Shown here in pieces: positions 9,981 through 45,092 of a stretch of 46,823 nucleotides of DNA (position 1 is the stretch's first letter; each line of letters starts with the position of its first letter). The notes beneath the pieces are model-generated. The model made no database searches. It was not told where the DNA came from and saw only the letters and a list, made by a program, of their open reading frames with translations. The DNA comes from Nemertoderma westbladi. Its lineage: Eukaryota > Animalia > Xenacoelomorpha. The translations under genes were made by a program, and so were the position numbers. Location: the NCBI GenBank assembly GCA_032718475.1, contig JAUCBJ010007178.1, forward strand, positions 1-46,823. Reading direction: 5' to 3'.

Positions 9981-9989
9981 CGGAAAGAG

Positions 9990-13938: not shown

Positions 13939-13950
13939 GTCGGGTCACCA
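13939..13950 (-). other. Primer-binding site, tRNA-Trp-like
   Basis: TGGTGACCCGAC 1 nt after the 5' LTR. It is complementary to the animal tRNA-Trp 3' end GTCGGGGTCACCA with one base missing. Confidence 0.8.
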
Positions 13951-13951
13951 A

Positions 13952-16310: not shown

Positions 16311-17472
16311 TGTTCGCGCTTTCAGACCTTTAGCAGTTTAACCTGCCAAATTAGGATGTCTTCTAGATAATAGATAGTCTTTAGCCTACGACAAATATTT
16401 GATACACTACATTAGCCGAAACCAGTCTATGTGCGATCATTCACCCGCTGGATATACCCGGGAGACTGGATTCGGAAGCCTAATCGTATTGCGGGGTAGG
16501 CCTACTGTATTATTCGATTGATCGTAATATATATAATCTCTGACAAATATTATTCACTTTCGGGAAATATTAACAGTTCCTTTAGGACGTGGCGCTCTAA
16601 ATATGTAAACAGAGTTATGACTTAAACTAGACACAACAGAATGGCTATAGATTCACGTATATGGCGCATTCTTTAGGAGATGCTTCGTTATCAATCACAA
16701 TCATACACAATGCTGCACAATGCTGTACACCAATCTGCCGACCTTCACTAATTTTAGTCACATACAAAGAGAATAACAGACAATACATGTAGGGCCTATA
16801 AAATAGCATTAGATTCACTTCAAACCACTTAATGTAAGCCGCAATCGTTATATGTAACCTGTCTCTCTAACCTTTAGGATATCAAGAAGATTGGGGTGTC
16901 TGATTATTGATCAGTATTCCAAATATAATGTTCCATCAACAAATATAATGAATAACCGACAGCAAAAGCAGTAATGTTAAGTAGGATATGTATGTTATGA
17001 GATATGATTTATGATTAAGAGTAGAGATAACGGATATACGTTCTATAATTAGGCCTACTAATGTTAAGCTAAAGACTGAAACACGGAGGTTCCACGCCGG
17101 TGTTGTAGGCTGTGGGCAAAAATCACATACACTGACTCAACTCCACGAGTTTCTATCTACCATCTAACACAGAGGCAAAAAACGCTCTGATTGGTCGACC
17201 GAACAAAGAGAGAACAAAGAACAAAGAGATGTTCTACGTGGCAATATCAGCTGTTAGCCGTCGTCATGGTATCTACACTGTTTCAAGAGGATCCGGCTTA
17301 TTGCGTCATAAAATTGCGGATTATGTCCGCTAAAGTACACATACAGAAGAAATGACTTTTATGTCCTCTAAAACACCAGTACAGTAAGGACACGGCCTTT
17401 TTATGCCTGGTAAACCAACTACAGAGTACTTTACGGGGAAAATAACCGGCTAATTACGCAAAAGCCTTTACA
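16311..17472 (-). repeat. 3' LTR of the BEL element, 1162 bp
   Basis: Matches 31634-32453 plus 33291-33632 with about six substitutions seen by eye. A purine tract (minus strand ctgggagcgg, 17473-17482) precedes it. Confidence 0.96.
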
Positions 17473-17498
17473 CCGCTCCCAGAAAATGGGATTTAAGT

Positions 17499-19072
17499 CT
17501 ATAAAATATAACAAATCACAGTTTCTAAAATATAAAAATACTCTAAACAGTTAGTCTTTCTTACGCGGACGGCGTTTACGCAGTTTTTTGAGGCAAGCAA
17601 GAGTCCTTTTCTCTTTGGGGGTAGCCACTTTACTAGGAGGGCCATAACTCCTGGGTGAAGGGTGCAATATGATTGCATCAGAAGGTGTAGGATTATGGTC
17701 GGGGTATCCGCCGTTTCGATATGCTTCTCCTCGAGCTGATTTTCCTCCGCTCGTAGCTGGATACGTTCATCCAAAAACTCTCGCAGAGAATAGGATCGTC
17801 CAAGTTCGATAACTTCTTAGAGATTCTGGATTTCCCGATCGAACTGAGATATAGTTACTTTGTTTACCGCTTGGACTTGCTAGTGCAATTTACGTTTATC
17901 TGAACAAGCGTAAGTTCCTTTTCTGATCTTTGTAGAATAGCGTCTAACTCATTTGGTACAACGCTCTCCGCCACTTTGGTGACAGGTTATATCGTGTTAA
18001 GCCGGGACGATGGTAAGGGTTAAACGGCGATATTAAATGTCCGCGTCCCAATCCGGCTAGGTAGGATGGGCTAATATCTAGGAAGCCTACAACCGGGGTG
18101 CCACCGACTAATTGTTCAGGTAACACTAGATCTTTGAACAGTGAGTACAGCTCGGGAGGATCCGTCATACTAATAGGATCAAGAGTCTGAGGTCTCACTA
18201 GGGAATGAAGAGGTCTAATCGAGTATTCCGAAACTCTGATCATTGGTTTATTTAAGGATGTCTGAGTCGAACGAGCGTAGGTGATACGTCAAACAAATTT
18301 CGCTCGAAACTCCCGTAAATATAGCGAGTAAAACCGTGTTTAAAGCAACGTCTCCGCGGATGTTTATGTCTTTCCGTTTGTTGGTTGGGTCTTGGGCATT
18401 CATCGCAATAATACCAAAGACGCACGTCTTGTAGGGGAAACGCGAGTGATCTTTCTCCAGCTTACAATATTCCTCCATCCGTTCGACGCTATCCAGTACA
18501 ACAGGTAGCGGTCGATCAGCGGTAAGATACATCATAGTGGAATAGAGCCGTTTGAGTTCTACCATGCGGTCATGATGTATACCTTGAGGATATCGAGTTT
18601 CTAGATTCTGTTGACTGGTAATATCGAGATAGGTTTCTCTCAAGAATTCCAGGTATTTGGTAAAGTCGCTGCATTTATCCGGCTCTTTAACATCTGCACT
18701 TTCGAGTCGGTTTCGAATAGAATTTTCGTGTTCGAGTCTCAGTTTATCGTTCCGCTTCCGCTGGGTATGATATTTAAATAAAACCATTTCCCTTTTGGTG
18801 TCTATATAGTTCGTATCGTGTAGGTCGATAGGATGGCCAGTAGTTAAGAAGTCCATATACGTACAATTACGATGCGTATAGCGAGCGGTGAATTTTCTCC
18901 AGCCCAACCCACGCGCAAGTTGCTCCCGGGACATTGGCGGTTAGATATAACGACCATCGTCTTCCGTAGTAGTTGGACCAGCGTCGCCGCGTATCAAGCT
19001 ATCAACAAAGGCTTGTAAAGGTAGAGTATATCGCTCCCTGATACCAAGATCATCTTCTATCAACTCAATCAT
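17499..19072 (-). pseudogene. Decayed accessory ORF of the BEL element in the env position, unknown product
   Basis: ATG at 19072 (MIELIEDD...) is in frame with the 228-aa ORF 18248-18934 across one TAA. ORF pieces 17944-18243 and 17499-17774 follow on the same strand. Confidence 0.55.
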
Positions 19073-19906
19073 ATCTGCTATATAAGTTTATCCATATTAT
19101 AATGAGTTTATATTTAGGCGAGCGGGCGTCGCTGCCTACCCCTCTCTGCCCCCGGACAGTGCGAGATCCTCAGCGCTGGTGTACTTTCGCCGATGTGCCT
19201 ATCGCCAACGTCGTAGCTGCACAACGACTACAACCACCAGCACAAGTCACTCCACCGTCCGTCCCAAAGGCTTAGATATACTTCAGGTTCTTACTGGAGA
19301 GTTAGGGTTACTTTCACAATTGCGACTCGCTACTGTACACACACCTTAGTAGTAACATTCACCTACAAACGCACAAATTCCACGTAATTGTCACAAATGG
19401 TACACATTCTATCACACATTCGGGTCATTTGTCCGTTAGTCAAGTGCCTTCCAGAATGTCACTTTATTTATTATGTATCCCTGGATACTAGCAGTGCGCT
19501 ATTTATTCCCTATGCTATTCAATGGGGCAAGCCTTCTATTGTTCTTTTAACTCACTTCTAATTCTGGCGTGGTTGTTGCCATGGTGACATTATGGAAAGC
19601 TAGCGGTAGAATTAGGGTAATTCTCATGCATACAGATCTGGGATGCTATTTGATAGTAATTCTTTAATTGTCAATATCCTCTCTATATATGATTTTATGG
19701 ATTTTATCGGCTATTGACTATATATTGGAGATTCTCGCACACAAATACACTTAATAGAGTGAATCTCCGCTCCCATGATCTATTAATTAATGGAATTTTG
19801 GGAATGTTATACATTGTATAAAATGACAATTTATTAAATTCATTGAAATATATGAATTTAAATTTATTCCCGTAAATTTTATTATTTAATATTAAAATAG
19901 ACATAA

Positions 19907-20200
19907 TTTTATTCCAGAACGTGTCTGGGGACTGGGATCCTGTATTCTAGGAATTTTGTCCTTTTAAGAGTATCGGTAAGTGCTACGATATCTTAATCGA
20001 CTAGAATTTTAAAGGATCTGATATTTGACAGATTTTGTAAATATTAATAATTAATATTTAGGATGGGCACCAGTTTATTCCAGAACTTGTCTGGGGACGT
20101 TAACCACTGATTCTAGAATTTTGTCTTTCAAGTATATCGGTGGGTGCCGCGATATCTTAATCGACTAGAATTGCAGATGGTCAAAGGGTTTAACAGATTT
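19907..20200. repeat. Diverged tandem duplication (~165-bp period) in the BEL 3' internal region
   Basis: tttattccagaac.tgtctggggac...tatcggt..gtgc..cgatatcttaatcgactagaatt occurs at ~19908 and ~20074. Confidence 0.8.
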
Positions 20201-20719
20201 ATTTTGCGTTATACGCTACTGTTAAAGGGACATCACGCTAATATATGTATTATTTAATATACGGTATGAGAGCAATATCGCACGAAGCAATGTCAGTGTG
20301 AAGAGGCAAGTCGTTTCCAAGGTCTACCCAGAGCTTGGTTTAGCCGAGACACGAGGATCTGAACTTTGCATTCCTAATACTCTGCCTACCAATAATACTT
20401 GAATATAGTAGTGGCTTTATTGTACTTTAATAAGTACGGACATTTCATCTTACTGTAGTTACGTATTCGTAATATAATACGGGCAGTAAGGAAAGAGAAA
20501 AAGAATTATTTCTCGCCGTCACACTAAATATATAATATAAGTAATTACGTAATAAACACGAATATATATTATACTAATCTACTAAATAATCGCTAAAATA
20601 ACATTCTACTGAATAAAATTAAATAAAACGATTATAATAAAATTACATAATAATACATACATAAATATAAAATAATAAGACAAATATAAAATATAGTCAT
20701 ACACCCACTCCAGCCGTTG

Positions 20720-21989
20720 TTAAGTTGGGGAGTCCCTAGATGTTTGTTGGATTAGGGAGGTGGTCGTGGTAAGAGTATCTTGCCTCCCATAGTTTCCGGA
20801 GAGTTCTCTGTCTCTTTCCAGTAAACATAAGCGACCAACTGGGCGATTGAGCTGCTGCGTCTCGAAGACAATTCCCGGTTTCTTGAAGTTACGTCGCATG
20901 ACGACGAGTTCTACCGATCGCACCAAACCATCATCAGAGATGTGAGTCTCGATGATACGACCTGTCTGCCACCACTTACGTGGAAGATCTACATCCACAA
21001 TAAGAACCATGTCTCCAGCGCTGACGTTTTCTTGCTGCGCAAACCACTTAGTTCGAAGTTGTAGCGTGGGCAGATAATGTTTTTCGAAATGATCAGCGAA
21101 ACGACGGGATAACAACTGCATGAGTTGCCAAGTTTGCCGGCAGTATTCGTCTCCGTCTGTGATTTCCGATTGTGGGAGCATGGCTACAGGTTTCTTCAGT
21201 AGGAAGTGCGCGGGTGTTACCGCTTCCAGGGAATCTGGACTCGATGAGACTGGCATAAGCGGTCTCTCGTTGAGATAGGCGGCGATTTCCTCCATTAACG
21301 TCCGCAAAAGTTCGTCGGTGAGATACGCGCGGCAAGGCACTATAAAGTTAAATGCTGTCTTCACACTTCTTATTAATCTCTCCCAACTTCCTCCCCACCA
21401 AGGGGCGTCTGCGGCGTTGAAGGTCCAGCTAGACGCTGTTACTCGTAGCTGATCGTCCACCTGTCTTTGGTTCCAATCTTTGACGTAAGCTTTGATTTCA
21501 TTGTTGGCACCAATGAAGTTAGTTCCCTTATCAGATCTCATCGTGTTACTAGTGCCAAAGCGAGCGATCTGTCGTCGTAAGCTTAATAGGAAGCTGTTGG
21601 TCGATAAATCGTTCACCATATCGAGATGGATAGCTCTACAAGTCATACAAACAAAGATTACACACCATCTCTTGACTATAGTCCTAGCACGATATACTTC
21701 AATAGGGCCAAATAAATCCACACCGGTATTAGTAAAGGGTGGTTCATAAAAGCTTACTCGTTCCCTAGGTAATTCTGCCTCTCGCTGTGTTAAAGGCCTA
21801 CTGAATGCTTTCCTACAGGGTATACAGTTCCTAAGAACTTGGTTCAGAGCTCTACGGGGTTTATAAAAATAATAGCGAGTTCGAATTTCGCTAAGAACTC
21901 GTTCCCTACCAGCATGATAAAGTTTGCTGTGAACATCTACAATCATCTTGACTTGTATTTCAAGATTTCTAATGAGTATGGGGAACTTT
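20720..21989 (-). CDS. pol: BEL integrase domain, frameshifted from the rest of pol
   Basis: HSKLYHAG...CIPC (HHCC), GVDLFGP, RSDKGTNF and GGSWERLIRSVK. It joins the upstream frame if one A at 21987-21989 is removed (SFDTK|FPILI). Confidence 0.93.
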
Positions 21990-24900
21990 AGTGTCAAAGG
22001 ATAATGGGGCATTCGTTAATCTTCCTCCAACACGTATCAACCCATCTATCATTGTGCTAGAGAAACGATCCCTTAAGCGCATCTGTGGATTTCTCAACAA
22101 CAGGAAATACTTATCGGAATCTTCATAGCATTGCAGGAGTCTCAGCATCTGCTTGTTGGTTTCTTCATGCTCCTGATAACTGATCTTCTCCTTCAGAAAC
22201 CTGTCGGGTATCTTATATTTGGGAAGATCTTTAATAACATGGACCTGCACTGATGTTATTGGAGCGGTATCACCTTTGGCCTTCATCCCGGAGTAGTGAT
22301 GGTGAAAACATCTCTTTAAATATGTAATGGCCTTACAGAGCCGATTCCAGGAACTGTAGTGATGTATCGCTCTCTGCAGAAGAGGTGAGAGTCCTTGCGA
22401 GACGTCTGGTATTCCAGATTTCCAATCCTTCTCACGGATTTCCACAACAAGTTTATTTGTGGCTGTGGGTTTCTGATCCAAAGCGTCGTCTCCGGAAGTA
22501 TGTAGTACAGACAGATCTACCATAGGTTTGAATAACTTCGATTTACTCGCTCGAGTTTTAGGTTTGACTTTCTCCGCTCCCTTGGCCTGTCTAATCTCTG
22601 TGGTAGTAAGATGAGGAGGCCATTCTTCTTCTTCTTTGTAGAGGAAGTCGGGTCCACCTAGCCAGTCTGGAGTATCTACCAGTTCTTGTGGAGTTGCTCC
22701 TCTGGAGGCGATGTCTGCTGGGTTAATCGTTCCGGGGCAATGTCTCCATTGATCCATCGTTGTGCGACTGAGTATAATGGCTACTCTGTTGGTAACGAAG
22801 ACGCTGAACTGACAGACTTCATTGGTTATATACTCCAACACGAGTAAAGCGTCGGTCCAATAGACAGTTTTCTCCAGTGGATAGTCGATCTGTTCTGTTA
22901 CATTCCGGCCGATGGCTGTAGCGTATAGAGCCGCTTTTAACTCCGCTCGAGGAACTTTCAACTTGTTGTTTATCAATGCCTTAGAGGTAACCAAGGCGAC
23001 TTTGATTCCTTCCGGAGTTTCCACCCTTAGGTAGGCTACTATACCTATTCCCATATCGCTGGCGTCTCCAAACACATGGAGTTGATAGGAATACGTAGGG
23101 AGAACATGACCAAAATATGAACGGGAAATTATAAAGTTCTCGATGGCTGGTAGAGAATCTTCCCATTTCATCCACTTCTTTAACAATTCTCCCTTAAGTG
23201 GATCGTCCCATGAGTGGTTTTCAAGCCACATTTGTTGTACTAAACTCCGAGCAATCAATATAACTGGGCTAATAAATCCCAATGGATCGAAATAAGTGCT
23301 CAGGATACTTAAACAAATCCGTTTAGTACGGACTGGATTATCTCGCTGTTTTAGTTGGAAAAACAGGATATCTCTTTCGGTGTCCCATTTCAAACCAAGG
23401 GTCTTAGTTTCTGGGAGATCATCCTTTATTAGATCCAGGTCTTTCGCTCCTCGATCTTCGACCGGGATCGACTCCAGAAACTCACGGGAGTTGCTGGTGA
23501 ATTTAGTTAATCGAAATCCACCTCTTTTTAAGCACTCTACCGTTCCTTTAGCGACGTCAATGGCTTCTTCGACTGATGGAAGGGACTTTAGATTGTCGTC
23601 CATGTATATATCCCGCTTAATGTTGTCAATCACCTCTTTAGAGAAGGCGTCTCGGTTGTCATCCGCAGTGGTGCGCACCACGGAACAGGCGTTTGAAGGG
23701 CTCGAGATTATCCCAAAAGCTTGGATGGTCATCCAGTACTCCACCGGTTTCTGGTTGAGGTCTCCTTCAGGCCACCACAGAAATCGTAGGCTATCTCGAT
23801 CCCTATCCAGCGCTTTGACTTGTAAGAACATGCCTTCTATATCTGAGGCGAAAGCAATGGAATATTGTCTTAATCTTAAAAGTATTCCCAACAATGATTG
23901 GAGTAAGTTGGATCCGGGTAACAATTCGGAATTAAGGGATTGGCCCATATAGAGGGCGGAGCCGTCAAACACCACTCGTACTTCATGAGGTTTACCGGGT
24001 TTGGGAACGTAATGGTGAGTTAAATAATACGTTCTCTCAGTTATAGGTGTTTCTTCCGGTACTAGCTCCGCATATCCCTTGCTAATAAATTTCTTCAACT
24101 GCGTTTGATACATTTCTTTAGCTGAAGAATTTGCCGTAAGGCGTCGATGTAGTTGAGCAATTCTTTTCTCCGCCAAGGGTCTGTTGTTTACGAACTTTGG
24201 TTCTCGCTTTCGGAAAGGTAAACCGATCTCATATCTACCTTGATCTTTAAGAAAACGAGTAGTTGTCGCTTGGATCTGCTTGGCTCTTTCTTCCTCCACC
24301 GATAGGGCCTTATTGTAGGAGTTGGGCTCTACAGCCTCTTGAGTAAAGAATCGTACGGCATGTTCTTCCCGAGTCTTGGCATTATAACGTTCAATGACGT
24401 CATTAAGCTCGTCGTTATAGTCGTCTCGTTCTGATGGAAGAAGGAGTTGACATAAGTTCACTTGGTTTTGCCAAGTCTCGTTTTCCTGAAGGAGATCGAT
24501 TGTATTCTCCTCATCGAAGAGTTGGTGTATATCGTCGTTGTCTGAGGAGTATGGAGTTCCCTCAGTTTGATCGTCTAACTCACTGTTCTCAACTTCCCAT
24601 TCTCGCACTTGATATACCTGATCTTTCGGTAATCTTTCCATGAGAGTTCTACGGGAAGGGCCAGTAAAGTACCAACCCACTCTAGTTCTTCCCGCATAAG
24701 CTTGTAGTGGTTGCGGATGAGCGGGCCGTTTCTCCAATGTCTCGAGCGCTTCATGCGCGTTTTGACCGATGAGTATTTGCACTCCAGGGTAATCGGTGTT
24801 GAATCTAGGTATTTCCAGTTGCTGGGTGAAATCGTCCTCATCCCAGTTATAAGGTTCCACTTGGGTGGTAGCGAAGTTCTTTATCGCCACCATTTTTACT

Positions 24901-26147
24901 GACCTTATACTATGTTCTCCTAGTTCATCCTGGGGGGTGGACAACGCACCTACATAATAATCCGCGATTACTGTAGATTTCCAAACCTGCATAATTCCTG
25001 ACATGTTTAGCTTAGTTCGGAACTTGGGTTGTCCAGCAAAGATGTCTTCGGCTATTTCTTTGTCGATGAATGTTCCTGTACTACCGGAGTCAAGGAGGGC
25101 GTTCACTACATAACTCCTTTTAGGTCCGTGGACCCTTACCTGTACTACAGGAAATTCTCGGATTCCTACATTGGAAGGTGGCGCTTTCCAAGATGGTTGT
25201 CGATCAGAAGTAGTTAGTGTGAGGTCGCTGTCTGTATCTTTTTCATACGTGAGTGCTCGATACACTGCGGTATTTATCATGTAACAGGATTCGTTTTCGT
25301 CGGATAACTCGTCCGTATAGAATCCTTCCATCTCAGATTGATCAGTGTCGTTCACATCACTGAATTGGACATGTAGTTCGGAATCACTTACCTGACTCGG
25401 ACTATTTCGCTCGAATTCAGTGTGCAACAAGATATGATGTTTCGCACCGCACTTTGCACACCTTGTGTCGGAGTAACAGGTTCGCCGTTGGTGTCCTTGT
25501 CTGAGGCAATTATAACACAACCGCTTATCCCACATGACTTCCCGTCTCTCCGCTAATGATTTCTTCAGGAATTCATCACACATATTCAAACAGTGGGTCC
25601 CGTCACATAGCGCACATTTCGGTTTGATGTTACTTACCTTATTTTGAATAACATTGTGCACACTCGTTCTTTCTTCGGGCCTTCTCACGTGAATTCTCTT
25701 AGGAGACGTAGGAGGAGTTTTTCTTACCTGTTCTCTCCTGTCATTGGTTCGAGACTTGAATTTACTTACCTGATCTTTAGGCATTTTATTGACATAATAA
25801 GATCTTTCAGTGTCTTTCCCGCTATCCTCTCCTTGAGAAGTCTGGCTTTCGCCGTCGTCAGTATAACACACTGGTGTTACTTTTCTCCTAGAAACGGGTT
25901 TCTCACTTACCTTGTTTTCCGGTGTCTTCTCTCTGGACTGTTTTAGGAGTTGTAATTTCACTTCTCCATCTAAGAATGACATGAGATCAGCCATGGTAGG
26001 GTCTCGTCGTTGTTGTTCCATCATATATAACACTTTCTTATCCCAGCTTGTACCTACTCCACCCTTCGGTAAAGTAGAAGCCACGGCTCCAATAACCATA
26101 GAACTCTGATATTCATGAGACTTACCTAACCAATCTAATTGTCTACA
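21969..26147 (-). CDS. pol: BEL gag C-terminus, protease, RT and RNase H
   Basis: CALCDGTHCLNMC / CYNCLRQGHQRRTC / CAKCGAKHHILLH knuckles, LLDSGSTG, RVVFDGSA, IYMDD, LHVFGDAS and NPADIASRG. Confidence 0.96.
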   Translation of the reverse strand, partial: CRQLDWLGKSHEYQSSMVIGAVASTLPKGGVGTSWDKKVLYMMEQQRRDPTMADLMSFLDGEVKLQLLKQSREKTPENKVSEKPVSRRKVTPVCYTDDGESQTSQGEDSGKDTERSYYVNKMPKDQVSKFKSRTNDRREQVRKTPPTSPKRIHVRRPEERTSVHNVIQNKVSNIKPKCALCDGTHCLNMCDEFLKKSLAERREVMWDKRLCYNCLRQGHQRRTCYSDTRCAKCGAKHHILLHTEFERNSPSQVSDSELHVQFSDVNDTDQSEMEGFYTDELSDENESCYMINTAVYRALTYEKDTDSDLTLTTSDRQPSWKAPPSNVGIREFPVVQVRVHGPKRSYVVNALLDSGSTGTFIDKEIAEDIFAGQPKFRTKLNMSGIMQVWKSTVIADYYVGALSTPQDELGEHSIRSVKMVAIKNFATTQVEPYNWDEDDFTQQLEIPRFNTDYPGVQILIGQNAHEALETLEKRPAHPQPLQAYAGRTRVGWYFTGPSRRTLMERLPKDQVYQVREWEVENSELDDQTEGTPYSSDNDDIHQLFDEENTIDLLQENETWQNQVNLCQLLLPSERDDYNDELNDVIERYNAKTREEHAVRFFTQEAVEPNSYNKALSVEEERAKQIQATTTRFLKDQGRYEIGLPFRKREPKFVNNRPLAEKRIAQLHRRLTANSSAKEMYQTQLKKFISKGYAELVPEETPITERTYYLTHHYVPKPGKPHEVRVVFDGSALYMGQSLNSELLPGSNLLQSLLGILLRLRQYSIAFASDIEGMFLQVKALDRDRDSLRFLWWPEGDLNQKPVEYWMTIQAFGIISSPSNACSVVRTTADDNRDAFSKEVIDNIKRDIYMDDNLKSLPSVEEAIDVAKGTVECLKRGGFRLTKFTSNSREFLESIPVEDRGAKDLDLIKDDLPETKTLGLKWDTERDILFFQLKQRDNPVRTKRICLSILSTYFDPLGFISPVILIARSLVQQMWLENHSWDDPLKGELLKKWMKWEDSLPAIENFIISRSYFGHVLPTYSYQLHVFGDASDMGIGIVAYLRVETPEGIKVALVTSKALINNKLKVPRAELKAALYATAIGRNVTEQIDYPLEKTVYWTDALLVLEYITNEVCQFSVFVTNRVAIILSRTTMDQWRHCPGTINPADIASRGATPQELVDTPDWLGGPDFLYKEEEEWPPHLTTTEIRQAKGAEKVKPKTRASKSKLFKPMVDLSVLHTSGDDALDQKPTATNKLVVEIREKDWKSGIPDVSQGLSPLLQRAIHHYSSWNRLCKAITYLKRCFHHHYSGMKAKGDTAPITSVQVHVIKDLPKYKIPDRFLKEKISYQEHEETNKQMLRLLQCYEDSDKYFLLLRNPQMRLRDRFSSTMIDGLIRVGGRLTNAPLSFDTKVPHTH

Positions 26148-26664
26148 CGAAGTGGGGACTTCGCGCAGCACGAAGTTGGCAGAGCCTTAGCGAATTGACA
26201 CTGTTAGGGGGTAGGTCAATTTATGCAAATAGTCACGTTGGCCCTCTAGCGGCAGACTGGAGAACTGCAGATGGATTCGCCTCCCTTGAAAGTCACAGCT
26301 AATGGTCTAATACATATCTGCCAAGTTTCAGCTTAAACGGATTAAAAGCAAAGAAATGGGAGGGCATTTAATGTTTAGACATGTGGCCCTCTAGCGGGAG
26401 ACCATTGCACTGATGGTGTCTGAAAGTCTCTCAAAAATCTCAACTTTTGCTCATATTGATACCTACAAATTTTCAACTTGGCAGCTTTAAATCCGACAAA
26501 GTTATTAGCATGTCAAAATCGTAACGACGACGACAACGACGACGACGACAACGACGACGACGACAACGACGACGACGACGACGACGACAACTATTTGCAT
26601 AAATTGACCCACCCCCTAACAGTGTCAATTCGCTAAGGCTCCGCCAACTTCGTGGCTCGCCCCA
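26146..26664. mobile_element. 519-bp non-autonomous insertion with subterminal inverted repeats, a microsatellite and a terminal hairpin (HINE/DINE-1-like architecture)
   Basis: ~65-bp inverted repeats at 26169-26233 and 26590-26654, (gac/aac)n at 26524-26590 and hairpin cacgaagt gggg acttcgcg at 26146-26165. Removing 519 bp restores FSDEIQEIC|RQLDWLG in frame. Confidence 0.85.
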
Positions 26665-29078
26665 CAGATCTCTTGAATCTCATCGGAAAACTCTATTATC
26701 CCCCTGCTAATGAACTTTCGGGGCGCTACTAATTTTGCATACAAATATTTAGCTATGTTATTCCTATTACCATACCTGATGTTTAGGGTATCCCAAACTT
26801 GCCTTAATCCGTCTGGATGTCCAATAAACTTTAATGCCATTAACTTGGGAGATCCTTCCAAGCACTCGATGAGGAATCTAAGTTTCTCTCCATTAGATAG
26901 TACAGAGTTCTGTATGTTATCTTTATAATATTCATTAAAAGGTAACCATTTCATCTCATCTCCATTGAACTTGACTATCTCTCCCACCTTTACCGCTTGC
27001 CGGGCTTCGGTTCTAGCCATTTGACGCGTAAAACTTTCTTGGGCCATCGTGTTATTTAATATCGAGTTATCGGTATATAAATTTCTCGGATTATGATCAG
27101 GTCTATAGGGAATATCACTATCAACAGGTCTATAATTACCCTTAATAGGGTTTACTATAGGAGTTTCTACTTCGCTAGCAGTATAGATGCGTGTAGGCTC
27201 CACACCTTGCGCATGAGATACTTCAGACCTAACGGGTTGACATATTGTTACAGAGGGTGGTGATATACCCTTTTGTAAATTTACTAATTTATCGCGTTCT
27301 AGCGTGATACTTTGCTGCACTTCTTGCAACTCTAACCTACTTTCCTTTACGGTTCCCTTTAACTGTTGAACAGTCCATTCTAACTCTCGGACCTGTTGGG
27401 AGGAGCGCACTCGATTCTCCTCCATCTTTCCGAGGAGAATATCCATCCCCCGCCGTCTCTCGTCTACCCAATCAACCGCAGAAGCGGGATCCGCCAACGT
27501 CGTAGCGGGCAGACGAGGGACTACGGGCGATATATCCTTTATATTTCGCTCGGAGTCCAGGACCGACACTGTTTCAGGGGCTGTTCCTCTAGGCACAGAT
27601 AATTTGGTGCTGTGTAAAGGGAATTTAAAGGTAGGTTCTGGGAGTACAGGTGTCTCTATCACCGAAGGGGTGATTTCAAGAACAGGCCTAATTATTTCAG
27701 GCTCATCTACTATAGTAGGGAGTCTTTCCATTTTAATTATTTGGTCTGTGGGTTCTGTACTACCTAAGCCTGCGCTAGTTAGTGCGCTTTTAACAGCTGG
27801 GGGCAAATCAGGCAATTTCTGATGGTGAGATGTTCTTCTACGCCTACTGAGACGAGATCTATTTCCTCCGCCTTCAGGATCGGTGGTATTGCCTTCCTCT
27901 GATGATGTATATCCTTGGCGTTTGGGAGTAGATCGACTCATCATCTGCATTCGACTATCTGTTAACTGCCTATTTATGTTGTCTTGCGTCTCCTGCAGAT
28001 CCTCCAACTCCAGTTGGGTGGTCTCTTCCGACGCTCTCCGTTCTGCTTCTGCCACTGCCTCTGCTGCTGCCACAGCCGCTTTTCTTTCCGCTTCTGCCTC
28101 TGCCGCTGCAACTGCAGCCTTTCTTTCCGCTTCTGCCTCTGCCGCTGCAACTGCCGTTGCTACCGCCGCTTTTCTTTCTGCTTCTGCCGTTGCCATTGCC
28201 GCTGCTACTGCTGTTGCCTTTCTGTCTTCTATCCGCCTTTTCTTTAATTGTTCTTCTCGGACTCTAGCGATGCGGAGTTGTTCATCAAATTTAGCTTGGT
28301 TCGCAGCTAACCTATCCACATCTATTGCGTCCAACACAAGCTTGGCTCCTTCACTATTAGGGCTAAGTCCCTCCAGCCTTCTCCTCAACTCTTCGTCCCC
28401 TACAAAGCGTTGATTGTCTGACAGATAGATGTCAATAGCATCCCTCTTATGCGGTTTCTCTGCTGTCGCTTCACTTTCCACTTGGGAAAAGGTAGCGTCT
28501 GTGGATTCCCCAAGTGTTGAGCGCTCATCTAACTGCGATTTCCACGGGGCAGCTCTTTGAACTTGGAGACTCACCCGTTGAAACCAAGTCTTTACGGCAA
28601 CTTGCAACGACGTGTCTTGTTTTCTTTTAGAAGCCTCCTCAAAGGCCGATAAGATTAGCCTGATTCGTAGAATTCTTTCTCTAACTTGATAAAGCAGCTG
28701 TCCCTGCTCTTGAGGTCCTTGTGGTTGTTGAAACAGTTGTTTTTCTAATCGCTCCATGGAGCTGAAGAATCCCTGTACGTATCCGGCTGCGGACCTCTTC
28801 CACACAGCTGGATCGATGGTTTCCTTGGTTACTCCCATCCTGTGTATATCTTCCCAGACAGTTTCTGATAAATCAAACGGGAGTCCGGGTCCGGGGAAGT
28901 TCCATTGCGACTCGACAATAGACTTCAGTTCTTCCCTTGTGTATCCCGCATAACTATCTTTAGTCGATCGCTTACTTCTCACCCAATCGATCTGGTGTTC
29001 TTCCACCGCAATCAATAACCTAGTGAGTACGGCTGCAGGGAGGATGAGAAGGGGATCCGAATAAACCGCATCCGTCAT
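26664..29078 (-). CDS. gag: BEL gag N-terminal part with long coiled coil and Ala-rich repeats
   Basis: BEL gag core (KFNGDEMKWLPF..LSNGEKLRFLIECLEG..LNIRYG) in frame with 21969-26147. AEAERKAAVAAA repeats at ~28040-28220. Confidence 0.92.
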
Positions 29079-29398
29079 CTTTGCCCCGCGCTCAGCTCTA
29101 CAGTATCCTCACTACTGGAGCTGTCGGGCCATTGAGAAATAAGTTCTTGGCTCACGGGTTGTTGTTGTTCCGCTGCTTCTTGGTCCCGCTTGACCTGAGC
29201 TCGAGTGCCTATGATAGACCTACGGTGTTGGATTAGCCTAGGGTCTGATATTACTACAGGAGGGATGACCTTCCTCACAGTAGGAGGTGAACTGAACTTA
29301 GGTCTAGACGGTTCTACAGCCCTATCTGAGTCGCAGATAGTTACATCTAATAAACTGTCTGACAGGTTCTGCTTAGTATCAGACATGTTTGTTTGCAC
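29075..29398 (-). CDS. 107-aa ORF upstream of gag, overlapping it by ATGA (or a frameshifted gag N-terminus)
   Basis: Its stop TGA overlaps the gag ATG at 29078-29075. Composition is similar to gag. Confidence 0.4.
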   Translation of the reverse strand: MQTNMSDTKQNLSDSLLDVTICDSDRAVEPSRPKFSSPPTVRKVIPPVVISDPRLIQHRRSIIGTRAQVKRDQEAAEQQQPVSQELISQWPDSSSSEDTVELSAGQR

Positions 29399-29524
29399 AG
29401 TTGAATGCTTACTGCTATATTACAGTCTAAGCAAGTCTAGTAATTCAGTATTAACTGTTAGCCTAGTAATTAATTACCGATACTGCTACTCAGTGTAGCG
29501 TGATATATATATAATATGATATAT

Positions 29525-29780
29525 TAGAATACCGGTATGCTTATAGTATATATAAATTTTATTACAGACTAGGTTTGTCACAGAATACCGGTATATAATT
29601 TTAGCACAAATATATATAAATATATAATAGGCCTATCGTGAATACCGGTATACAGCCTACACTTATAGTATATATAAGTATAATTCTGGACTAGAATTAA
29701 TTACAGAATACCGGTATAATTTCAGCCTAAATTTATAGAAATAAAGATAATAGGCCTATCGTAAATACCGGTATATCAAT
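29525..29780. repeat. Degenerate tandem repeats in the BEL 5' UTR (core aataccggtat, ~60/120-bp period)
   Basis: Five aataccggtat cores alternating with ataggcctatcgt blocks. Confidence 0.7.
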
Positions 29781-30736
29781 TATTTAAATAATTGAATTTC
29801 TGAATTTTAAGGGTTACTTGGTTACTTTAACTTACTTTATTACCGTTATTTAAGCAGTAGTCCAACTGATATTGAGACCTAATTGTTGTATGGCAGGCCT
29901 ACTATTTATAAATCGTTTAAGTTGATTTATAATATATATACCCCTATAATGGGTTTTGTCAATATTTGAAATAAATGTTATTATTTCTGGGGGGAGTCAC
30001 TACACAGAAGCTGTGCGCTCTCAGTGAAGTGCTACTTGTTGGACACTAAAACAAATAATTCTAATTTACCTAAGTTACTTAATACTACAAATTACGTACA
30101 ATTCGGGTTGAGATTACAATCTCTAAATAAACACAAAAAAAAATTACAAATACCCAAATACGAATTTTTAGGGTAATTTTACAAGAAGTCTACTAACCAG
30201 CCTAACAAAGGGTTAGAATATCTGGTTATTACAACGGACAGGTTACTACGGTATTTGAAAATAATAAGTAGTAGTAAATATATTGCGCTGTCCAGATAGG
30301 AAAATGCCACCGTCTGACGACCTATAGCCGTATCGCTATAGGTACTACGTTATGTATCACGGAGTGTTCCTACCCAGAAGTTAATTACTGCGGTCTACCA
30401 GAACCAACGTGCCTATTAACCACTTTACAACACAAATATACTGCCTACACGCTAATTACCTTCGGAAAGCACTGTACACTAAACCCTAAATTAGGTACAA
30501 GTACTTGTACAACAAATAATCAGTCGTTAAAAATACTTGAACAGCTAAAAGAACCACGGTATCTGCCGGAGTGACCAAAGCATAAAATCTCCAGTCTTTA
30601 CCTACGCCAAGCAGCCCTGATGTAGTACCGGAGTTAGTTTAACTATAACGGTATGTATAACAAGCACAATTACTGTAGGAATAAACTTGGGGAATGAATG
30701 TTGCGAATAATAGCATAAACTCTGAATAATAAATAT

Positions 30737-31285
30737 TACGCTACGCGTACAGACTACTCAAACAAAATGCAGACCAAATACTGACAGACTACTATCAAGC
30801 CTAAACAAACCACGGTATAACCTAACGGTATAACCTAACCTAGTAGTACGACTTATTCTTTCAGAGGAGGTTTACCTCACAGCACTGGAAGCCCCTACGT
30901 TCCCAACTGGCACTTTATCGGACATACACTCTACATACACCGAAATTTCCTCAGACTTAACAACAGCCAGACAACTATCCAGCCTACAAATTATCTAAAT
31001 AAGAATTATACGCTACCTGTACAGACTACACAAACAAAGTACAGACCAAACGATGGCAGACTACTATCAAGCCTAAATAAACTACAGTATATGCAGACTC
31101 CGAAATGATTAGTTAGTATGCGTTCTAACCTAGTAGTACGACTTATTCTTTCACAGGGGGTTTACCTCACAGCACTTGAAGCCCCTACGTTCCTAACTAG
31201 CACTTTATCGGACAGATGCTCTACACACACTGCAATCCGTTCAGACTTAACAACAGTTAGACAACAGTCAAGCCTACAAATTATC
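30737..31285. repeat. Tandem duplication (~270-290 bp) in the BEL 5' UTR
   Basis: tacagactac...ctaacctagtagtacgacttattctttca...gaagcccctacgttcc...agcctacaaattatct occurs twice. Confidence 0.85.
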
Positions 31286-31633
31286 TGTACAATCTGAGCA
31301 GGCTTACACGCCTTCTGCTCAATATTAGCCTACTAGTAAATAAAACTGACAGAAATAAGTAAAATCTCAATAAAAAACCAGGGCTACAGTCCCTGATTAA
31401 TTATTAAGGCCTACCGGTATATAATTATCAAAATCGAATAATACTGCTGTACCTGTACTGCTGTAGGTACCGGTCCGGGTGGTTAGGTAGTCAGGCCTAC
31501 TGGGTACCGGTTGCCGGTACTTCAGCTTTATTGCCTACTGCAATACAGAAGCTATAACCGTTATTGTGCTTACCAGAACAATATTAAACTGTATTTATTG
31601 CCTACCCTGCAATCCGAACTTAATATCCGTTAT

Positions 31634-33632
31634 TGTTCGCGCTTTCAGACCTTTAGCAGTTTAACCTGCCAAATTAGGATGTCTTCTAGATAATAGATAG
31701 TCTTTAGCCTATGACAAATATTTGATACACTACATTAGCCGAAACCAGTCTATGCGCGATCATTCACCCGCTGGATATACCCGGGAGACTGGATTCGGTA
31801 GCCTAATCGTATTGCGGGGTAGGCCTACTGTATTATTCGATTGATCGTAATATATATAATCTCTGACAAATATTATTCACTTTCGGGAAATATTAACAGT
31901 TCCTTTAGGACGTGGCGCTCTAAATATGTAAACAGAGTTATGACTTAAACTAGACACAACAGAATGGCTATAGATTCACGTATATGGCGCATTCTTTAGG
32001 AGATGCTTCGTTATCAATCACAATCATACACAATGCTGCACAATGCTGTACACCAATCTGCCGACCTTCACTAATTTTAGTCACATACAAAGAGAATAAC
32101 AGACAATACATGTAGGGCCTATAAAATAGCATTAGATTCACTTCAAACCACTTAATGTAAGCCGCAATCGTTATATGTAACCTGTCTCTCTAACCTTTAG
32201 GATATCAAGAAGATTGGGGTGTCTGATTATTGATCAGTATTCCAAATATAATGTTCCATCAACAAATATAATGAATAACCGACAGCAAAAGCAGTAATGT
32301 TAAGTAGGATATGTATGTTATGAGATATGATTTATGATTAAGAGTAAAGATAACGGATATACGTTCTATAATTAAGCCTACTAATGTTAAGCTAAAGACT
32401 GAAACACGGAGGTTCCACGCCGGTGTTGTAGGCTGTGGGCAAAAATCACATACTACTACTACTACTACTAGGATCGGCATGCTGCATTGCAGCTGCATTT
32501 TTAAGAATGCTGTGCCGGCTTGTCAACAAAATTGCACCGCCACAACTCCCTATCACCCATGACATTTGCTAGATCATCCGCATCTTTAAGGCCAGTGTCC
32601 TTTAAGATGCGTCTCAAGAAAGTCATGGGCTGTCCACCATGCTTATTCACTCCATGAGGCTGCCAAAGTACAAGATTATGCACTGGCTGGTCCTCACGGC
32701 GAAAGCAATGTCCTGCAAAGCGGAGGCGATTTTGTTCTAGTGTCAAGCTTGGGGGAACCAATGAGACACCTCCAATGTTATATAGTGTCTGGTTGGAGAT
32801 GTGTGCATTGTACTTGACACAATGTACCCGGCGTAGCATTCTTGTGAATGTGCCATCCAGAGATTTGGTGTCCTCAGCAGTTAGAGCCCAGCATGGACTC
32901 CCGTAGAGGAGTACTGGAACTACTGCTGCTCTAAATAATCGGACCTTAAGTTTCCGATTAATTCTAGGTGACTTCCAAATCCTGGAAAGCCTATTCAAGG
33001 CTGCCCATGCCTTTCCCTTACGTATTCGAAGGTCCTCACCTGACTTCCGAATCCATGATCCCAGGTAACAGAAGTCGTCCACATGCTCAAGCATACCATC
33101 CTTTGAGCTTATGCTCATCCGATCAGAGACTTGCTGAGGACTTTCAAAGTTAACTGTCAGAATTTTGGTCTTTCTGGAGTTAATAAAAAGACCAACACTA
33201 GAAGCAGCATGTTCTAATGAGCTGAGGAGCCGCTGGGCTCCCTCTAATGATTCTGAGAGTACTCCTAAGTCATCAGCAAAGTCTAGACTCACTGACTCAA
33301 CTCCACGAGTTTCTATCTACCATCTAACACAGAGGCAAAAAACGCTCTGATTGGTCGACCGAACAAAGAGAGAACAAAGAACAAAGAGATGTTCTACCTG
33401 GCAATATCAGCTGTTAGCCGTCGTCATGGTATCTACACTGTTTCAAGAGGATCCGGCTTATTGCGTCATAAAATTGCGGATTATGTCCGCTAAAGTACAC
33501 ATACAGAAGAAATGACTTTTATGTCCTCTAAAACACCAGTACAGTAAGGACACGGCCTTTTTATGCCTGGTAAACCAACTACAGAGTACTTTACGGGGAA
33601 AATAACCGGCTAATTACGCAAAAGCCTTTACA
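31634..33632 (-). repeat. 5' LTR of the BEL element, interrupted by a LINE fragment
   Basis: 1999 bp minus the 837-bp insert equals 1162 bp, the length of the 3' LTR. Confidence 0.96.
32454..33290 (-). mobile_element. 5'-truncated RTE-type non-LTR retrotransposon (RT C-terminal part) with a (TAG)n tail
   Basis: ORF 32501-33292: LDFADD, GLFINSRKTK, VDDFCYLGS, VLLYGSPCW, RLRFAGH. It is absent from the other LTR, and no TSD is seen. Confidence 0.9.
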
Positions 33633-35262
33633 AGAATCATGGCTGAGCCATGATATTATTCTGTATGAATCATGGCTGAGCCCTGATATTATTCTGTAAG
33701 AATCATGGCTGAGCCCTGATTTTATTCTATATTGAATCATGGCTGAGCCCGGATATTATTCTGTATAGAATCATGGCTGAGCCCGGATATTATTCTGTAT
33801 GAATCATGGCTGCTAAGCCCTGATATTATTCTGTATATAATCATGGCTGAGCCCTGATATTATTCTGTATGAATCATGGCTGAGCCCTGATATTATTCTG
33901 TATATAATCATGGCTGAGCCCTGATAATTATTCTGTATGAATCATGGCTGAGCCCTGATATTATTCTGTATAGAATCATGGCTGAGCCCTGATATTATTC
34001 TGTATATAATCATGGCTGAGCCCTGATATTATTCTGTATGAATCATGGCGGAGCCCTGATATTATTCTGTATGAATCATGGCTGAGCGCTGATATTATTC
34101 TGTATGAATCATGCTGAGCCCTGATATTATTCTGTATGGAATCATGGCTGAGCCCTGATATTATTCTGTATGAATCATGGCTGAGCCGTGATATTATTCT
34201 GTATAGAATCATGGCTGAACCCTGATATTATTCTGTATGAATCATGGCTGAGCCCTGATATTATTCTGTATGAATCAGGGCTGTGCCCTGATAATATTCT
34301 GTATAGAATCATGGCTGAGCCATGATATTATTCTGTATGAATCATGGCTGAGCCATGATATTATTCTGTATGAATCATTGGTGAGCCCGGATATTATTCT
34401 GTTTAGAATCATGGCTGAGCCCTGATATTATTCTGTATATAATCATGGCTGAGCCCTGATAATTATTCTGTATGAATCATGGCTGAGCCCTGATATTATT
34501 CTGTATAGAATCATGGCTGAGCCCTGATATTATTCTGTATATAATCATGGCTGAGCCCTGATATTATTCTGTATGAATCATGGCGGAGCCCTGATATTAT
34601 TCTGTATGAATCATGGCTGAGCGCTGATATTATTCTGTATGAATCATGCTGAGCCCTGATATTATTCTGTATGGAATCATGGCTGAGCCCTGATATTATT
34701 CTGTATGAATCATGGCTGAGCCGTGATATTATTCTGTATAGAATCATGGCTGAACCCTGATATTATTCTGTATGAATCATGGCTGAGCCCTGATATTATT
34801 CTGTATGAATCAGGGCTGTGCCCTGATAATATTCTGTATAGAATCATGGCTGAGCCATGATATTATTCTGTATGAATCATGGCTGAGCCATGATATTATT
34901 CTGTATGAATCATTGGTGAGCCCGGATATTATTCTGTTTAGAATCATGGCTGAGCCCTGATATGATTCTGTATGAATCAGGGCTGTGCCCTGATAATATT
35001 CTGTATAGAATCATGGCTGAGCCATGATATTATTCTGTATGAATCATGGCTGAGCCATGATATTATTCTGTATGAATCATGGTTGAGCCATGATATTATT
35101 CTGTATGAATCATGGCTGAGCCATGATATTATTCGGTATGAATCATGGCTGAGCCATGATATTATTCTGTATGAATCATGGCTGAGCCCTGATATTATTC
35201 TGTATGAATCATTGGTGAGCCCGGATATTATTCTGTATCTATCATGGCTGAGCCCTGATATT
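33633..35262. repeat. 33/34-bp satellite, right part, with a 535-bp higher-order duplication
   Basis: Same unit as 15532-16310 and resumes in register. Identical variant strings lie 535 bp apart (33976-34212 and 34511-34747). Confidence 0.97.
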
Positions 35263-37669: not shown

Positions 37670-37985
37670 TGGCGCAAGTGACTCTTATTCTCAATTTTGG
37701 TGATGGACAACTTTTAGTTCTCCTACTGCATTGATATTATGCTCATTAGAACCGCAATGACAACGAATTAGTGGCGGTAGACAACATCAAAACAAGCACA
37801 GCACAGAGCGAATAGTTATTGAGATATTGCAGAAAATGTTAAGTCCGGCACAAGTCAACATTACGGCCTTGATGATTTATAGACAAATACACAAAAATGT
37901 TACTTCTAATGAGCATAATATTAATGCAGTAGGAGAACTCAAATTAGGCCATCGCGAAAATTGATAATAATCATCACTTGCGCCA
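37670..37985. repeat. Fold-back/MITE-like inverted repeat with ~82-bp imperfect arms
   Basis: 37670-37751 (tggcgcaagtga...agttctcctactgcattgatattatgctcattagaa) is the reverse complement of 37904-37985. The right arm abuts the LINE. Confidence 0.8.
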
Positions 37986-40190
37986 TCGGGCTCATTCAAT
38001 TGTAAAATTGGAAACTCCGACCACCAAGCCACCTTCATAGTCATACAAAAGTTTAATTGTATTTTTAACGAACCCAAACCACGCACTACCTTTGACTTTT
38101 CTAAATTTAATGAACGCGCCTTTCTTCAGGACATTAAGACAGACACTATCTGGACTTACACCGACAATGCTATACCTCTCCGCACTAAATTCGACACTTT
38201 TCACAAAGACCTCACAAGAATTTGTACATCACATTTACCGACGAAACCGCTTACTCATAAGACTCGGCCCCTTAAACCGTGGCTATCTGAAAACTTACTA
38301 AAATCTATTCGGACAAAGGACAAACTATACCGTAACTACCTGAAAAACCGAACCGACACCAACCGACAACTCTTTACTTCATACCGCAACCGTTTAACCT
38401 CCACTCTTAGGGCCGCTGAAAAAAACTTTTTTTCCCAACAATTTGACCGTAACTCCAACAACATCCGCAAGACTTGGTCCATTATTAATTCCGCCCTGCA
38501 CAAATCGTCTTCCAAATGTTCTCCTAAAAAATTGATTATTAAAACAAACAATGAAACTCAAATCATTTCAGATCCTAAAGAAATAGCAGAAAAATTTAAC
38601 AGTCACTTTGCAACCGTTGGATCGTCATTACAGAACACGCTAACCCAGAGGCCTACCTCCTCCCCCCTACGTCATATTTCTCACACCCGCGCGAATTCAT
38701 TTTGCCTCTCTGAAACCTCTCCAATTGAGATCCAATACAAAATTCTCAACCTAAAATTAAATTGTAGCTCCAATGACCCTTTTCCACCAAAACTCATACG
38801 ACTGGCCGCTGAACCTCTTTCTTACCATTTATACAATCTTTTTAATCTTTCTATTGTCCGCGGTTTCTTTCCGGATTCCTTAAAAACTGCCAAAGTGATT
38901 CCAATTTACAAATCCGATGATATAACTGATCCCAACAATTACCGCCCCATATCTCTCTTACCCATTATCAGTAAAATTCTAGAACAAATTCTTAACGACC
39001 AATTGCAAACATACCTTATAAAATACAACATTATTTCCATATCTCAATATGGTTTCCGCAATAAGACTTCTACTTCGCACGCCTTACTCTCCATCACTGA
39101 AAAAATATATGCCATGCTTGATTCCCACCAATCAATTTGTGCCGTATATATTGATCTTAAAAAAGCCTTTGACACCGTGGACCACAAGATTCTTATACGG
39201 AAGCTTGAAGCCTACGGTGTCAGGGGCCCCCCATTACATCTCTTCTCTGACTTTCTTGCTAATCGTAACCAATTTGTTTCGATTGACAGCATCCACTCAA
39301 CCCTTCAACCCATAAATTGCGGCGTCCCACAAGGCTCTGTTTTGTCCCCCACTTTATTTATAATTTTTATTAATGACCTTCCAAACGTGACTAACTTACT
39401 GACCACACTATTTGCCGACGACACGACGTTACTCAACTCGCACACCAATATTCAGACCCTTCTCAATGACACAAACAATGAACTCACCAAACTAAACAGT
39501 TGGCTAATAGAAAATAAACTAATACTCAATTTAAAAAAAACCGAATATACTCTATTTACAAACCGTATCTTAAATAATGACAATCGTTTACCCACAATCG
39601 AAATTAATAACTCCTCTATACAAATTACCGACAACACAAAATTACTAGGCATCTGGCTTGATTCAAAACTCAGGTGGAAAACACACATAAATTATATCCT
39701 TAAAAAAATCTCTCAATCTTCTGGAATATTTTACAAGCTACGCCATATTTTTCCCTTACACATTCTCAGGACACTCTACTTCACCCTAATTCACCCATAC
39801 ATCAACTACGGCATTATTCTATGGGGCAGCTCCGATAAATCGATACTCAAACCTTTACGCATTAAAATTAATAAACTGATACGGTGCATTACATTCTCCC
39901 ACTATCAATCGTCCGCGTTACCACTTTACAAAGAACTAAAAATTTTACCTCTTAACAAACTATACGATCTCACTGTCGCCAACTTTATGTACGATATTCA
40001 TTCTCACACAATCTCAACCTCCTCCACGCTAGGCAAACTTTTCAGCAAACGTTCCATTTCACACAACTACAATACTCGTTCTTCTGCCCGAGGTGATTAT
40101 ACAACCCCGCTTTTCAGGCTTACCTCCTCCCAACGTTCCGTGAGTTTTCGAGGTCCTGCCATCTGGAACTCTGTGCCACTTGACATTAGA
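37986..40190 (+). mobile_element. L2/CR1-group (Crack/Daphne-like) LINE ORF2, truncated at both ends
   Basis: One open frame from the APE-terminal SDH motif through KPWLS, NYRPISLL, QYGFR, IDLKKAFDTVDH, GVPQGSVLSP, FADD and LLGIWLD to GPAIWNSVP. No 3' UTR or tail. Confidence 0.93.
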
Positions 40191-40250
40191 TTAGACATGA
40201 TGGAGTGCACTTTTAGAGAGATATATATTCCAGGGAAACCTAAAATGTTG

Positions 40251-40290
<40 letters not shown>

Positions 40291-40333
40291 CGTGATTAAC
40301 CCTGTATGCACTTCACCATCCCAGAAACCAAAA

Positions 40334-40618
40334 TTTATTATTGGTGTTATGGGTGAATGAGTGGTTTCATATTATTACAAAATTTTGTTGGGCGCAGATT
40401 TTGCAAAGTCGGCAATCACGTCCAGGTGGGATCGAACTGGTGACCTCCGTGTTGGAAGTCTGACGCTCTAACCATTCAGCTAGCAGCTCAGGTAAAAGAT
40501 AGACCTGCAAATACTATCTGATACCTTGTATGTCCGCAATTTACCTCCTCATGGCATCACATATCTGTCAATACCATCATATGCTGCCGCTGTGCTCAAC
40601 TCTACCGTACTTGGCCGT
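40334..40618 (-). repeat. Repeat containing a tRNA-like module, copy 1
   Basis: Reverse complement of 43977-44216 and 40630-40817. A-box TAGCTGAATGG, loop CTTCCAA and B-box AGTTCGATCCC. Confidence 0.8.
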
Positions 40619-40817
40619 ATCAGATAGTACCAGATAGTATTTCGAAACCTATCTTTTACCTAAGCAGCTAGCTGAATGGTTAGAGTGTCAGACTTCCAAC
40701 TCGGAGGTCACCAGTTCGATCCCACCTGGACGTCATTGCCGACTTTACAAAGCTGCGCCCAACCAAAAAGTTGTAATAATATGAATCCACACATTCACCC
40801 ATAACACCAATAATAAA
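40617..40817 (+). repeat. Repeat containing a tRNA-like module, copy 2 (inverted relative to copy 1)
   Basis: ~190-bp arm complementary to 40334-40520. Confidence 0.8.
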
Positions 40818-43976: not shown

Positions 43977-44216
43977 CGGCCAAGTACTGTAGGGGTTGAG
44001 CTCAGTGGCAGCATATTATGATGGTATTGACAGATGGGAGACTATGAGGAGGTAAATTGTGAACATACAAGGTATCAGATAGTATTCCCAGGTCTACCAT
44101 TTACCTGAGCCGCTAGCTGAATGGTTAGAGCGTCAGACTTCCAACCCGGAAGTCACCAGTTCGATCCCACCTGGACGTCATTGCCGACTTTGCAAAAGCT
44201 GCACCCGACAAAAAGT
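43977..44216 (+). repeat. Repeat containing a tRNA-like module, copy 3
   Basis: Aligns with copy 1, including ~130 bp upstream of the tRNA-like part. Confidence 0.8.
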
Positions 44217-45092
44217 TATAGAAACCAAAATGACACCCTGTTCAGCTATAAATCATTTCATGACAGATATTATTTGCCCCAAAAAATGATTGGTACCCAA
44301 TAAAGGCGGAGTAACAATTAAGGTTTTGTGAGCAAACAGGTGAACCAGATGTTGTGATAGCTATGGCATCCGTTTCATCGTTTCATAGTAACTATGTTAT
44401 ATATTGTTTATCTATTGTACACTGGTTAAAACCGCCATAGGCATTCCCCTAATACATTAGTGCTAGTATCATCCGAAAGCAATGCTGGTGTAGTAACATA
44501 GAAACAATGGTTAGTCATATATTGCTATCCTATATATACCTAGCGCAGCATTCCGATCAGAGGACCTATATAACATTATAACAACTCACTTACTAGGCTG
44601 CATTTTCTGCAGCAAGACCATGGCTATTACGAACAAAGACTGACTTATAGCTTTCAACCTGTGTGGAACCATAGTTCCGCACATGCTCGGATTCTGGACA
44701 TTAGCTAGTTATCTATCTGTGATATATTTACTATTATACTGTTTATCCAGAATATATGTGGAATTTAAAGACGAAACAAGCTAAGGTTTCCCCAAGATCT
44801 ATAACTATTAGCACCCCTTTGTCAATTTAAACCTATGGGTTGACAACAAACACGCTTGGTATCTAAGTGCTAGTTACAACACGTCTACCAACCTAGATCC
44901 CCTGATGCAGAGTGGCCTTCTGACACATATTGAATGGATATTAAAAATATCTTGGAAGCGAGTAATTGCTGAGTAATTTAAGTGATTTCACATAATGAAA
45001 ATTTATATATATATATATATATTATAATATACAAATTTACTAAAAAGTATCAGTTTAAAGGACCACCCCACCCCTATTTGAGAATGATTTCC

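Follow-up and report, generated by a model that had tools for sequence, protein, structure and literature searches.

The primer-binding-site (PBS) position of a BEL/Pao retrotransposon from Nemertoderma westbladi is the exact complement of an 11-mer in the element's own long terminal repeat (LTR) and lies flush with the LTR end; the same relation is found, with different letters, in related families. The element was analysed in a stretch of 46,823 nt (contig JAUCBJ010007178.1), which is referred to here as the window. The sequences suggest that this lineage likely starts reverse transcription with its own RNA, often in a form predicted to be spliced. A primer derived from the element itself, in whichever form, is highly probable from these comparisons, and it is rather probable that priming occurs in cis, through an RNase H cut of the element's own RNA as in Tf1. 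A wider scenario has a little better than an even chance: in a broad marine-animal BEL/Pao lineage the spliceosome would build the primer, which is split by an LTR intron. Only spliced RNA would then replicate, the intron would be re-copied from the unspliced 3' LTR, and the window family would have lost the intron and carry its primer ready-made. The splice-built primer would belong to the relatives; the window family shows the contiguous form.

How BEL/Pao elements replicate has been described as poorly understood, with tRNA as the assumed primer (PMC8742986). If self-priming of BEL/Pao elements is true, the Tf1 mechanism would extend to a third LTR superfamily, and it would be clear why PBS-based annotation misses such elements. 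A splice-built primer, if true, would link the replication of a retrotransposon to the RNA processing of its host, and would show how an element copied from RNA keeps a spliceosomal intron.

Structure and classification of the element

The element lies on the minus strand (16311-33632) and spans 17.3 kb with its insertions. It is bounded by LTRs and by a 5-bp target-site duplication, ATTCT (33633-33637 on the minus strand, second copy at 16306-16310), within a 33-bp satellite, the array of which surrounds the element on both flanks (15464-16310 and 33633-35171). The LTRs are 1162 nt each, start with TGT and end with ACA. The 3' LTR (16311-17472, minus strand) is uninterrupted and differs from the 5' LTR by 6 substitutions (99.5% identity). 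An 837-nt LINE fragment (32453-33289, minus strand) separates the 5' LTR (31634-33632, minus strand) into the pieces 33632-33290 and 32452-31634; the fragment is 5'-truncated, encodes the C-terminal part of a reverse transcriptase (RT) (RVT_1, E = 1e-5; DUF6451) and has a short-repeat tail. The insertion point lies upstream of the 11-mer. Two independent features, the 3' LTR and the ATTCT on both flanks, define the LTR ends; the 5' LTR finishes with ...AACA at 31634.

The 5' part of the gag-region ORF (26625-29108, minus strand) contains DUF1759. It is followed by an inverted-repeat insertion (26169-26654; 65-nt arms, 97%) that breaks gag-pol, and by an ORF (21969-26186, minus strand) with Cys-His knuckles, a protease motif, the RT (YMDD) and a PF05380 region; the knuckles and YMDD were read off the sequence. 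The integrase-region ORF (20720-22015, minus strand; Integrase_H2C2 and DUF5641) is in a different frame. The Pfam domain order is DUF1759, PF05380, Integrase_H2C2 and DUF5641. A short, G-rich polypurine tract (17473-17480, minus strand) is flush with the 3' LTR (spacer 0). The nearest proteins are BEL/Pao polyproteins with about 40-44% identity, the named ones being from marine invertebrates and fish, and protein searches found no protein with more than about 44% identity to the RT region of the window. PF05380 is present in all 120 homologues listed.

By its sequence the element is a member of BEL/Pao (Belpaoviridae), with LTRs, target duplication, polypurine tract and Gag/Pol order all present. 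This membership rests on Pol, and a tRNA PBS is only a descriptive trait. The ICTV description of the Belpaoviridae shares with the window element the LTRs, the polypurine tract, gag-pol with PR-RT-RH-IN and a metazoan host; whereas it gives an 18-nt PBS for tRNA-Arg or tRNA-Gly and a length of 4.2-10 kb (PMC8742986), neither of which fits this copy. The copy is young but probably non-autonomous, because of the LINE in the 5' LTR, the inverted-repeat insertion in gag-pol and the frame change of the integrase. Its untranslated regions are unusually long (3' 3.2 kb, 17473-20720; 5' 2.5 kb, 29109-31622) and contain internal tandem repeats. A 230-aa stop-to-stop frame in the 3' region (18248-18940) had no Pfam match.

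Complementarity between the PBS position and the LTR

The PBS position (31623-31633, minus strand) abuts the 5' LTR end without a spacer and reads ATAACGGATAT in the sense direction (31633-31623). The original prediction was drawn from this region, and the observation behind it is confirmed. The sequence after the LTR contains no TGG-type PBS; it is the exact reverse complement of the 11-mer at LTR positions 436-446 (32350-32360, minus strand), the predicted self-primer. This complement occurs at 32360-32350 and in the 3' LTR copy (17037-17027, minus strand), and nowhere else in the window. The pairing is flush with the independently fixed LTR boundary (offset 0), and 716 nt separate the 11-mer from the LTR end, as had been estimated for the loop. 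The two TCAGT motifs said to lie about 40 and 95 nt upstream of the 11-mer are present at LTR positions 394 and 338; the nearer one (32396-32402, minus strand) is initiator-like or splice-acceptor-like. Four further nucleotides (32363-32366, minus strand) are predicted to lengthen the duplex by pairing with 31619-31616 past an internal loop, and the predicted energy of the duplex with this extension is -17.7 kcal/mol. No tRNA gene was found within the window, and the LTR of the element contains neither AATAAA nor ATTAAA, nor any candidate for a canonical intron that splits the primer.

The match might be due to chance or be specific to a copy that lost its normal tRNA site. Eleven AT-rich bases were matched within a 1162-nt LTR, many windows were surveyed, and 4 of 50 pseudo-sites in the element reached 10 nt under the loosest scoring; the copy is also disrupted by two insertions and a frame change. 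However, a perfect complement of at least 11 nt arose at offset 0 in only 23 of 20000 dinucleotide-shuffled LTRs (60 of 20000 when offsets 0-3 were allowed), LTRs that are nearly identical leave little time for a tRNA site to decay, and the relatives show the same design. Such an origin is therefore very improbable. Among the internal 11-mers of the element, 7 of 14150 have a perfect LTR complement, and the PBS is one of these 7.

Complementarity in related families

A profile search returned 88 loci, 87 of which fall into 41 RT families. The counts cover the fifteen families whose repeat boundaries gave both an LTR sequence and the position of the 5' LTR end, and leave out the 26 whose 5' LTR end had no such anchor. 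Many of the loci probably stem from few host species, and the RT of the window is about 40% identical to those of the relatives. Three LTR ends were shifted by 2 nt so that the LTR finishes in CA or TA.

A normal tRNA PBS in related copies was one alternative named with the original prediction; none of the 15 families has a tRNA-type site, and all site sequences differ. The single family starting with TG-G has a 2-nt spacer and a 14-nt self-complement, and is not tRNA-type. An own-LTR complement of 10-15 nt was found in 12 of the 15 families, which makes 13 of 16 with a perfect complement of at least 10 nt when the window is included; two settings behind these counts, the strict motif list and the maximum offset of 6, were chosen post hoc, with the data already seen. 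The pairing between PBS and LTR is thus kept with entirely different sequences. In cross-family controls, 10 of 240 pairs reached at least 10 nt with any GT..AG allowed, and 1 of 240 with canonical motifs; pseudo-sites in the families' own leaders gave 21 of 800 (loose) and 6 of 800 (strict).

Three relatives have a contiguous complement: L013 (10 nt), L048 (13 nt, surviving only in the 3' LTR copy) and L056 (11 nt). The three families below 10 nt are L039/41 (9), L081 (8) and L050 (6); other LTR copies of L050 contain an 11-nt complement, read by eye. In L022, one copy has a PBS change that is unmatched in its LTR.

The pairing might also have a structural or regulatory role, in a leader stem that covers the site or responds to splicing, with a host RNA not yet recognised, perhaps a tRNA fragment, acting as the primer. 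LTR elements commonly have long-range leader helices, and in half-tRNA priming (copia, Osser, Bianca) the PBS complements a fragment of the tRNA anticodon stem. Half-tRNA primers occur in Ty1/copia lineages (PMC6317226). Host-RNA priming is nevertheless unlikely here, because the 16 families have 16 different self-matching sites, each of which would need its own host RNA equal to its own LTR or splice junction. Moreover, the matches consist of Watson-Crick pairs and begin within 0-6 nt of the LTR end, which is where a primer must end.

Three families have no PBS spacer, and they are the only 3 of 16 with a polypurine tract ending in GG flush with the LTR. This coincidence, noticed post hoc, fits the idea that the end of the pairing marks the end of the DNA; the lengths of the two spacers are not always mirrored. 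The loop is 44-230 nt in all 15 relatives versus 716 nt in the window, more than three times that of any relative. In 11 of 16 LTRs, AATAAA or ATTAAA is located at the primer end or beyond it. Across 14 families, no shared TATA or initiator motif was found before the paired segment; a TATA-like motif occurs in L002. A search of metagenome contigs with the LTR-end pattern gave 0 matches, and viral contigs contained no relatives. Several loci, including L081, L082 and L086, are animal-type BEL/Pao elements in contigs filed as bacterial MAGs, which is probably host contamination.

Predicted intron-split primers in the relatives

In 10 of the 15 related families (L002, L003, L006, L009, L023, L029, L037/57, L039/41, L054 and L063), the best complement (9-15 nt) requires the removal of a canonical GT-AG intron from within the LTR. 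The segment to be removed for this match is 71-404 nt. When any GT..AG was allowed, all 10 spliced best matches used GTAAG, GTGAG or GTAGG donors; the acceptors of all 10 were YAG after a pyrimidine- or U-rich run, and the second exon contributed 5-8 nt. L050 and L081 are below the cut-off (6 and 8) and have the same split layout. For all intron families examined (12 of 12), the spliced junction was predicted to form a stronger duplex than the unspliced sequence on either side. The original idea of self-priming is supported by the co-variation across families; the predicted intron-split primer of most relatives had been missed.

Seven loci in which only the LTR start could be placed were subjected to an unanchored scan of CA sites, and are outside the counts given above. 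Canonical spliced matches were found in L044 (15 nt), L067/L068 (11) and L080 (11), and none in L030; contiguous or ambiguous matches were found in L065, L080 and L082. L065 (7088-7400) clusters with the intron family L054, and its 5' LTR apparently has a contiguous 12-nt complement ending in GT. It is possibly a variant that arose by intron loss or donor shift, its LTR end not being independently placed.

The contiguous families do not group together in the FastTree RT tree but are interspersed with the intron families, which fits repeated intron loss; L048, for example, is in a clade (support 0.998) with the intron family L009. The window element is on a long branch with weak placement. For the window family the evidence from the relatives is indirect, owing to this branch and to the roughly 40% identity to all of them.

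Other copies in the host genome

The window family is very abundant, with 9804 matching contigs from one run of public DNA contigs. Contigs of the species match the window through the 11-mer and then diverge, with several different continuations from 32343-32349 in all 4 runs, which is 1-7 nt beyond the 3' end of the 11-mer. None of 224 contigs from the 4 runs, aligned on 32322-32401, stays alike below 32340, and none of the matches listed (17 of 20) has a loose end inside 32350-32360. A 63-nt indel of the window's subfamily (joint 32285-32349) may be in part responsible for this edge. In two single low-depth contigs of other copies, the PBS is retained to about its last base before the sequence diverges (joints 31622 and 31623), which argues against a copy-specific match. 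In 3 of 4 runs the 11-mer also appears with one base changed; the contigs are too short to span both the 11-mer and its PBS, and can reveal neither co-variation nor RNA starts. At the window start (1-116, plus strand) there is a related LTR end, about 89% alike. It had been suggested for testing the pairing and was rejected, as the sequence behind it does not resemble the leader of the element; the LTR is probably a solo or a 3' one.

Proposed mechanism of priming

In the cis reading, transcription would start upstream of the 11-mer or at it, the LTR segment would pair with its complement at the PBS position, and the RNase H of the element would likely cut at the 3' end of the 11-mer, as in Tf1. 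The RT could then copy the remaining 716 nt of the LTR, giving minus-strand strong-stop DNA. The original prediction allowed that two cuts might be needed, with the TCAGT motifs lying upstream of the 11-mer. A second cut appears unnecessary, because a primer needs only a free 3' end; a single cut would release this end, and the motifs demand no further cut since the 5' leader can stay attached. The sequence upstream of the primer 3' end would have to be copied from the 3' LTR portion of the RNA. Plus-strand synthesis would transfer the primer sequence to the new PBS, so that primer and PBS would stay matched. In the intron families, host splicing of the LTR intron is predicted to be necessary for the primer to exist. 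This intron would persist while the 3' LTR copy is unspliced, and would be lost when that copy is spliced, leaving a contiguous primer.

Global folding of trial transcripts (757-1067 nt) gave the 11-bp helix in 1 of 6 (pair probability 0.53-0.77) and 0.0 in the other 5, although long-range predictions of this kind are unreliable. As modelled, folding does not favour the 716-nt loop. The length of this loop beside those of the relatives and the lack of AATAAA and ATTAAA in the LTR also speak against the cis form. Its main rival is supply of the primer in trans. Any LTR copy, whether 5', 3' or solo, could give rise to a small RNA or short transcript (spliced in the intron families) with its 3' end at the end of the 11-mer, and this RNA would be packaged with unspliced genomic RNA. 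Such a primer would avoid the disfavoured loop, and would allow intron retention without unequal splicing of two LTR copies in one RNA. The abundance of the family also suits it, and transcripts of the LTR alone are plausible in view of the AATAAA or ATTAAA at or after the primer end in most LTRs. However, no precedent for it was found in the literature consulted, whereas Tf1 acts in cis (PMC7175516), and a precise 3' end would still require a cut at the duplex end. Supply in trans is considered a minority possibility, clearly less probable than self-priming in cis.

Comparison with known self-priming elements

Tf1/sushi, Tcn1 and Tj1 have been described as self-priming, and the same has been proposed for the TAR copia elements of plants (PMC6317226, PMC4600332, PMC6934838, PMC5443660). 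Like the window element, Tf1/Tf2 (Schizosaccharomyces pombe), Tj1 and the Tf1/sushi and Tcn1 chromoviruses have no tRNA site, and their PBS complements about 11 nt of their own LTR-derived RNA. The RNase H of Tf1 cuts between bases 11 and 12 (PMC7175516, PMC4600332). The Tf1/sushi Pol is that of Ty3/gypsy chromoviruses; whereas the Pol of the window is of the BEL/Pao type and hence from a different superfamily. The Tf1-type primer is formed by the first bases of the transcript; the 11-mer of the window may lie within the transcript rather than at its 5' end, and its loop is 716 nt. No intron-split primer is described for the Tf1 type in the passages available, whereas most relatives of the window would need an intron removed. 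The window element probably works like Tf1 but does not belong to the Tf1/sushi group.

The TAR lineage of plant Ty1/copia elements (Houba, Osr-1) was predicted to be self-priming from an LTR complement of at least 10 nt starting 0-5 nt after the 5' LTR; the window has 11 nt at offset 0. In the accessible part of that report (PMC6317226), the lineage differs in being copia, from plants and supported by prediction only, with no mention of a split primer. The original remark that no self-priming had been reported for BEL/Pao agrees with the literature search, which found no such report and none of an intron-split primer; subscription journals and Repbase notes were outside its scope. The main text of the BEL/Pao clade papers PMC3118150, PMC554778, PMC6238403 and PMC2774666, as far as available, contained no PBS information, and the available portions of PMC3601003, PMC3286476 and PMC13524379 had nothing on BEL/Pao self-priming or split primers.

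Other elements in the window

A second LTR element, of the Ty3/gypsy type, is located at 9743-14171 on the minus strand. It has 223-nt LTRs that are 99% alike, a 1087-aa RT-RH-IN ORF and a DUF7041 ORF; in contrast to the BEL/Pao site, the sequence after its LTR resembles a TGG-type tRNA site that overlaps the LTR end. A 774-aa ORF for an RT of the non-LTR type (37971-40295, plus strand) is followed by a poly-G run. MITE-like inverted-repeat elements are found at 37670-37985, 40376-40817 and 44034-44220, as well as at 26169-26654.
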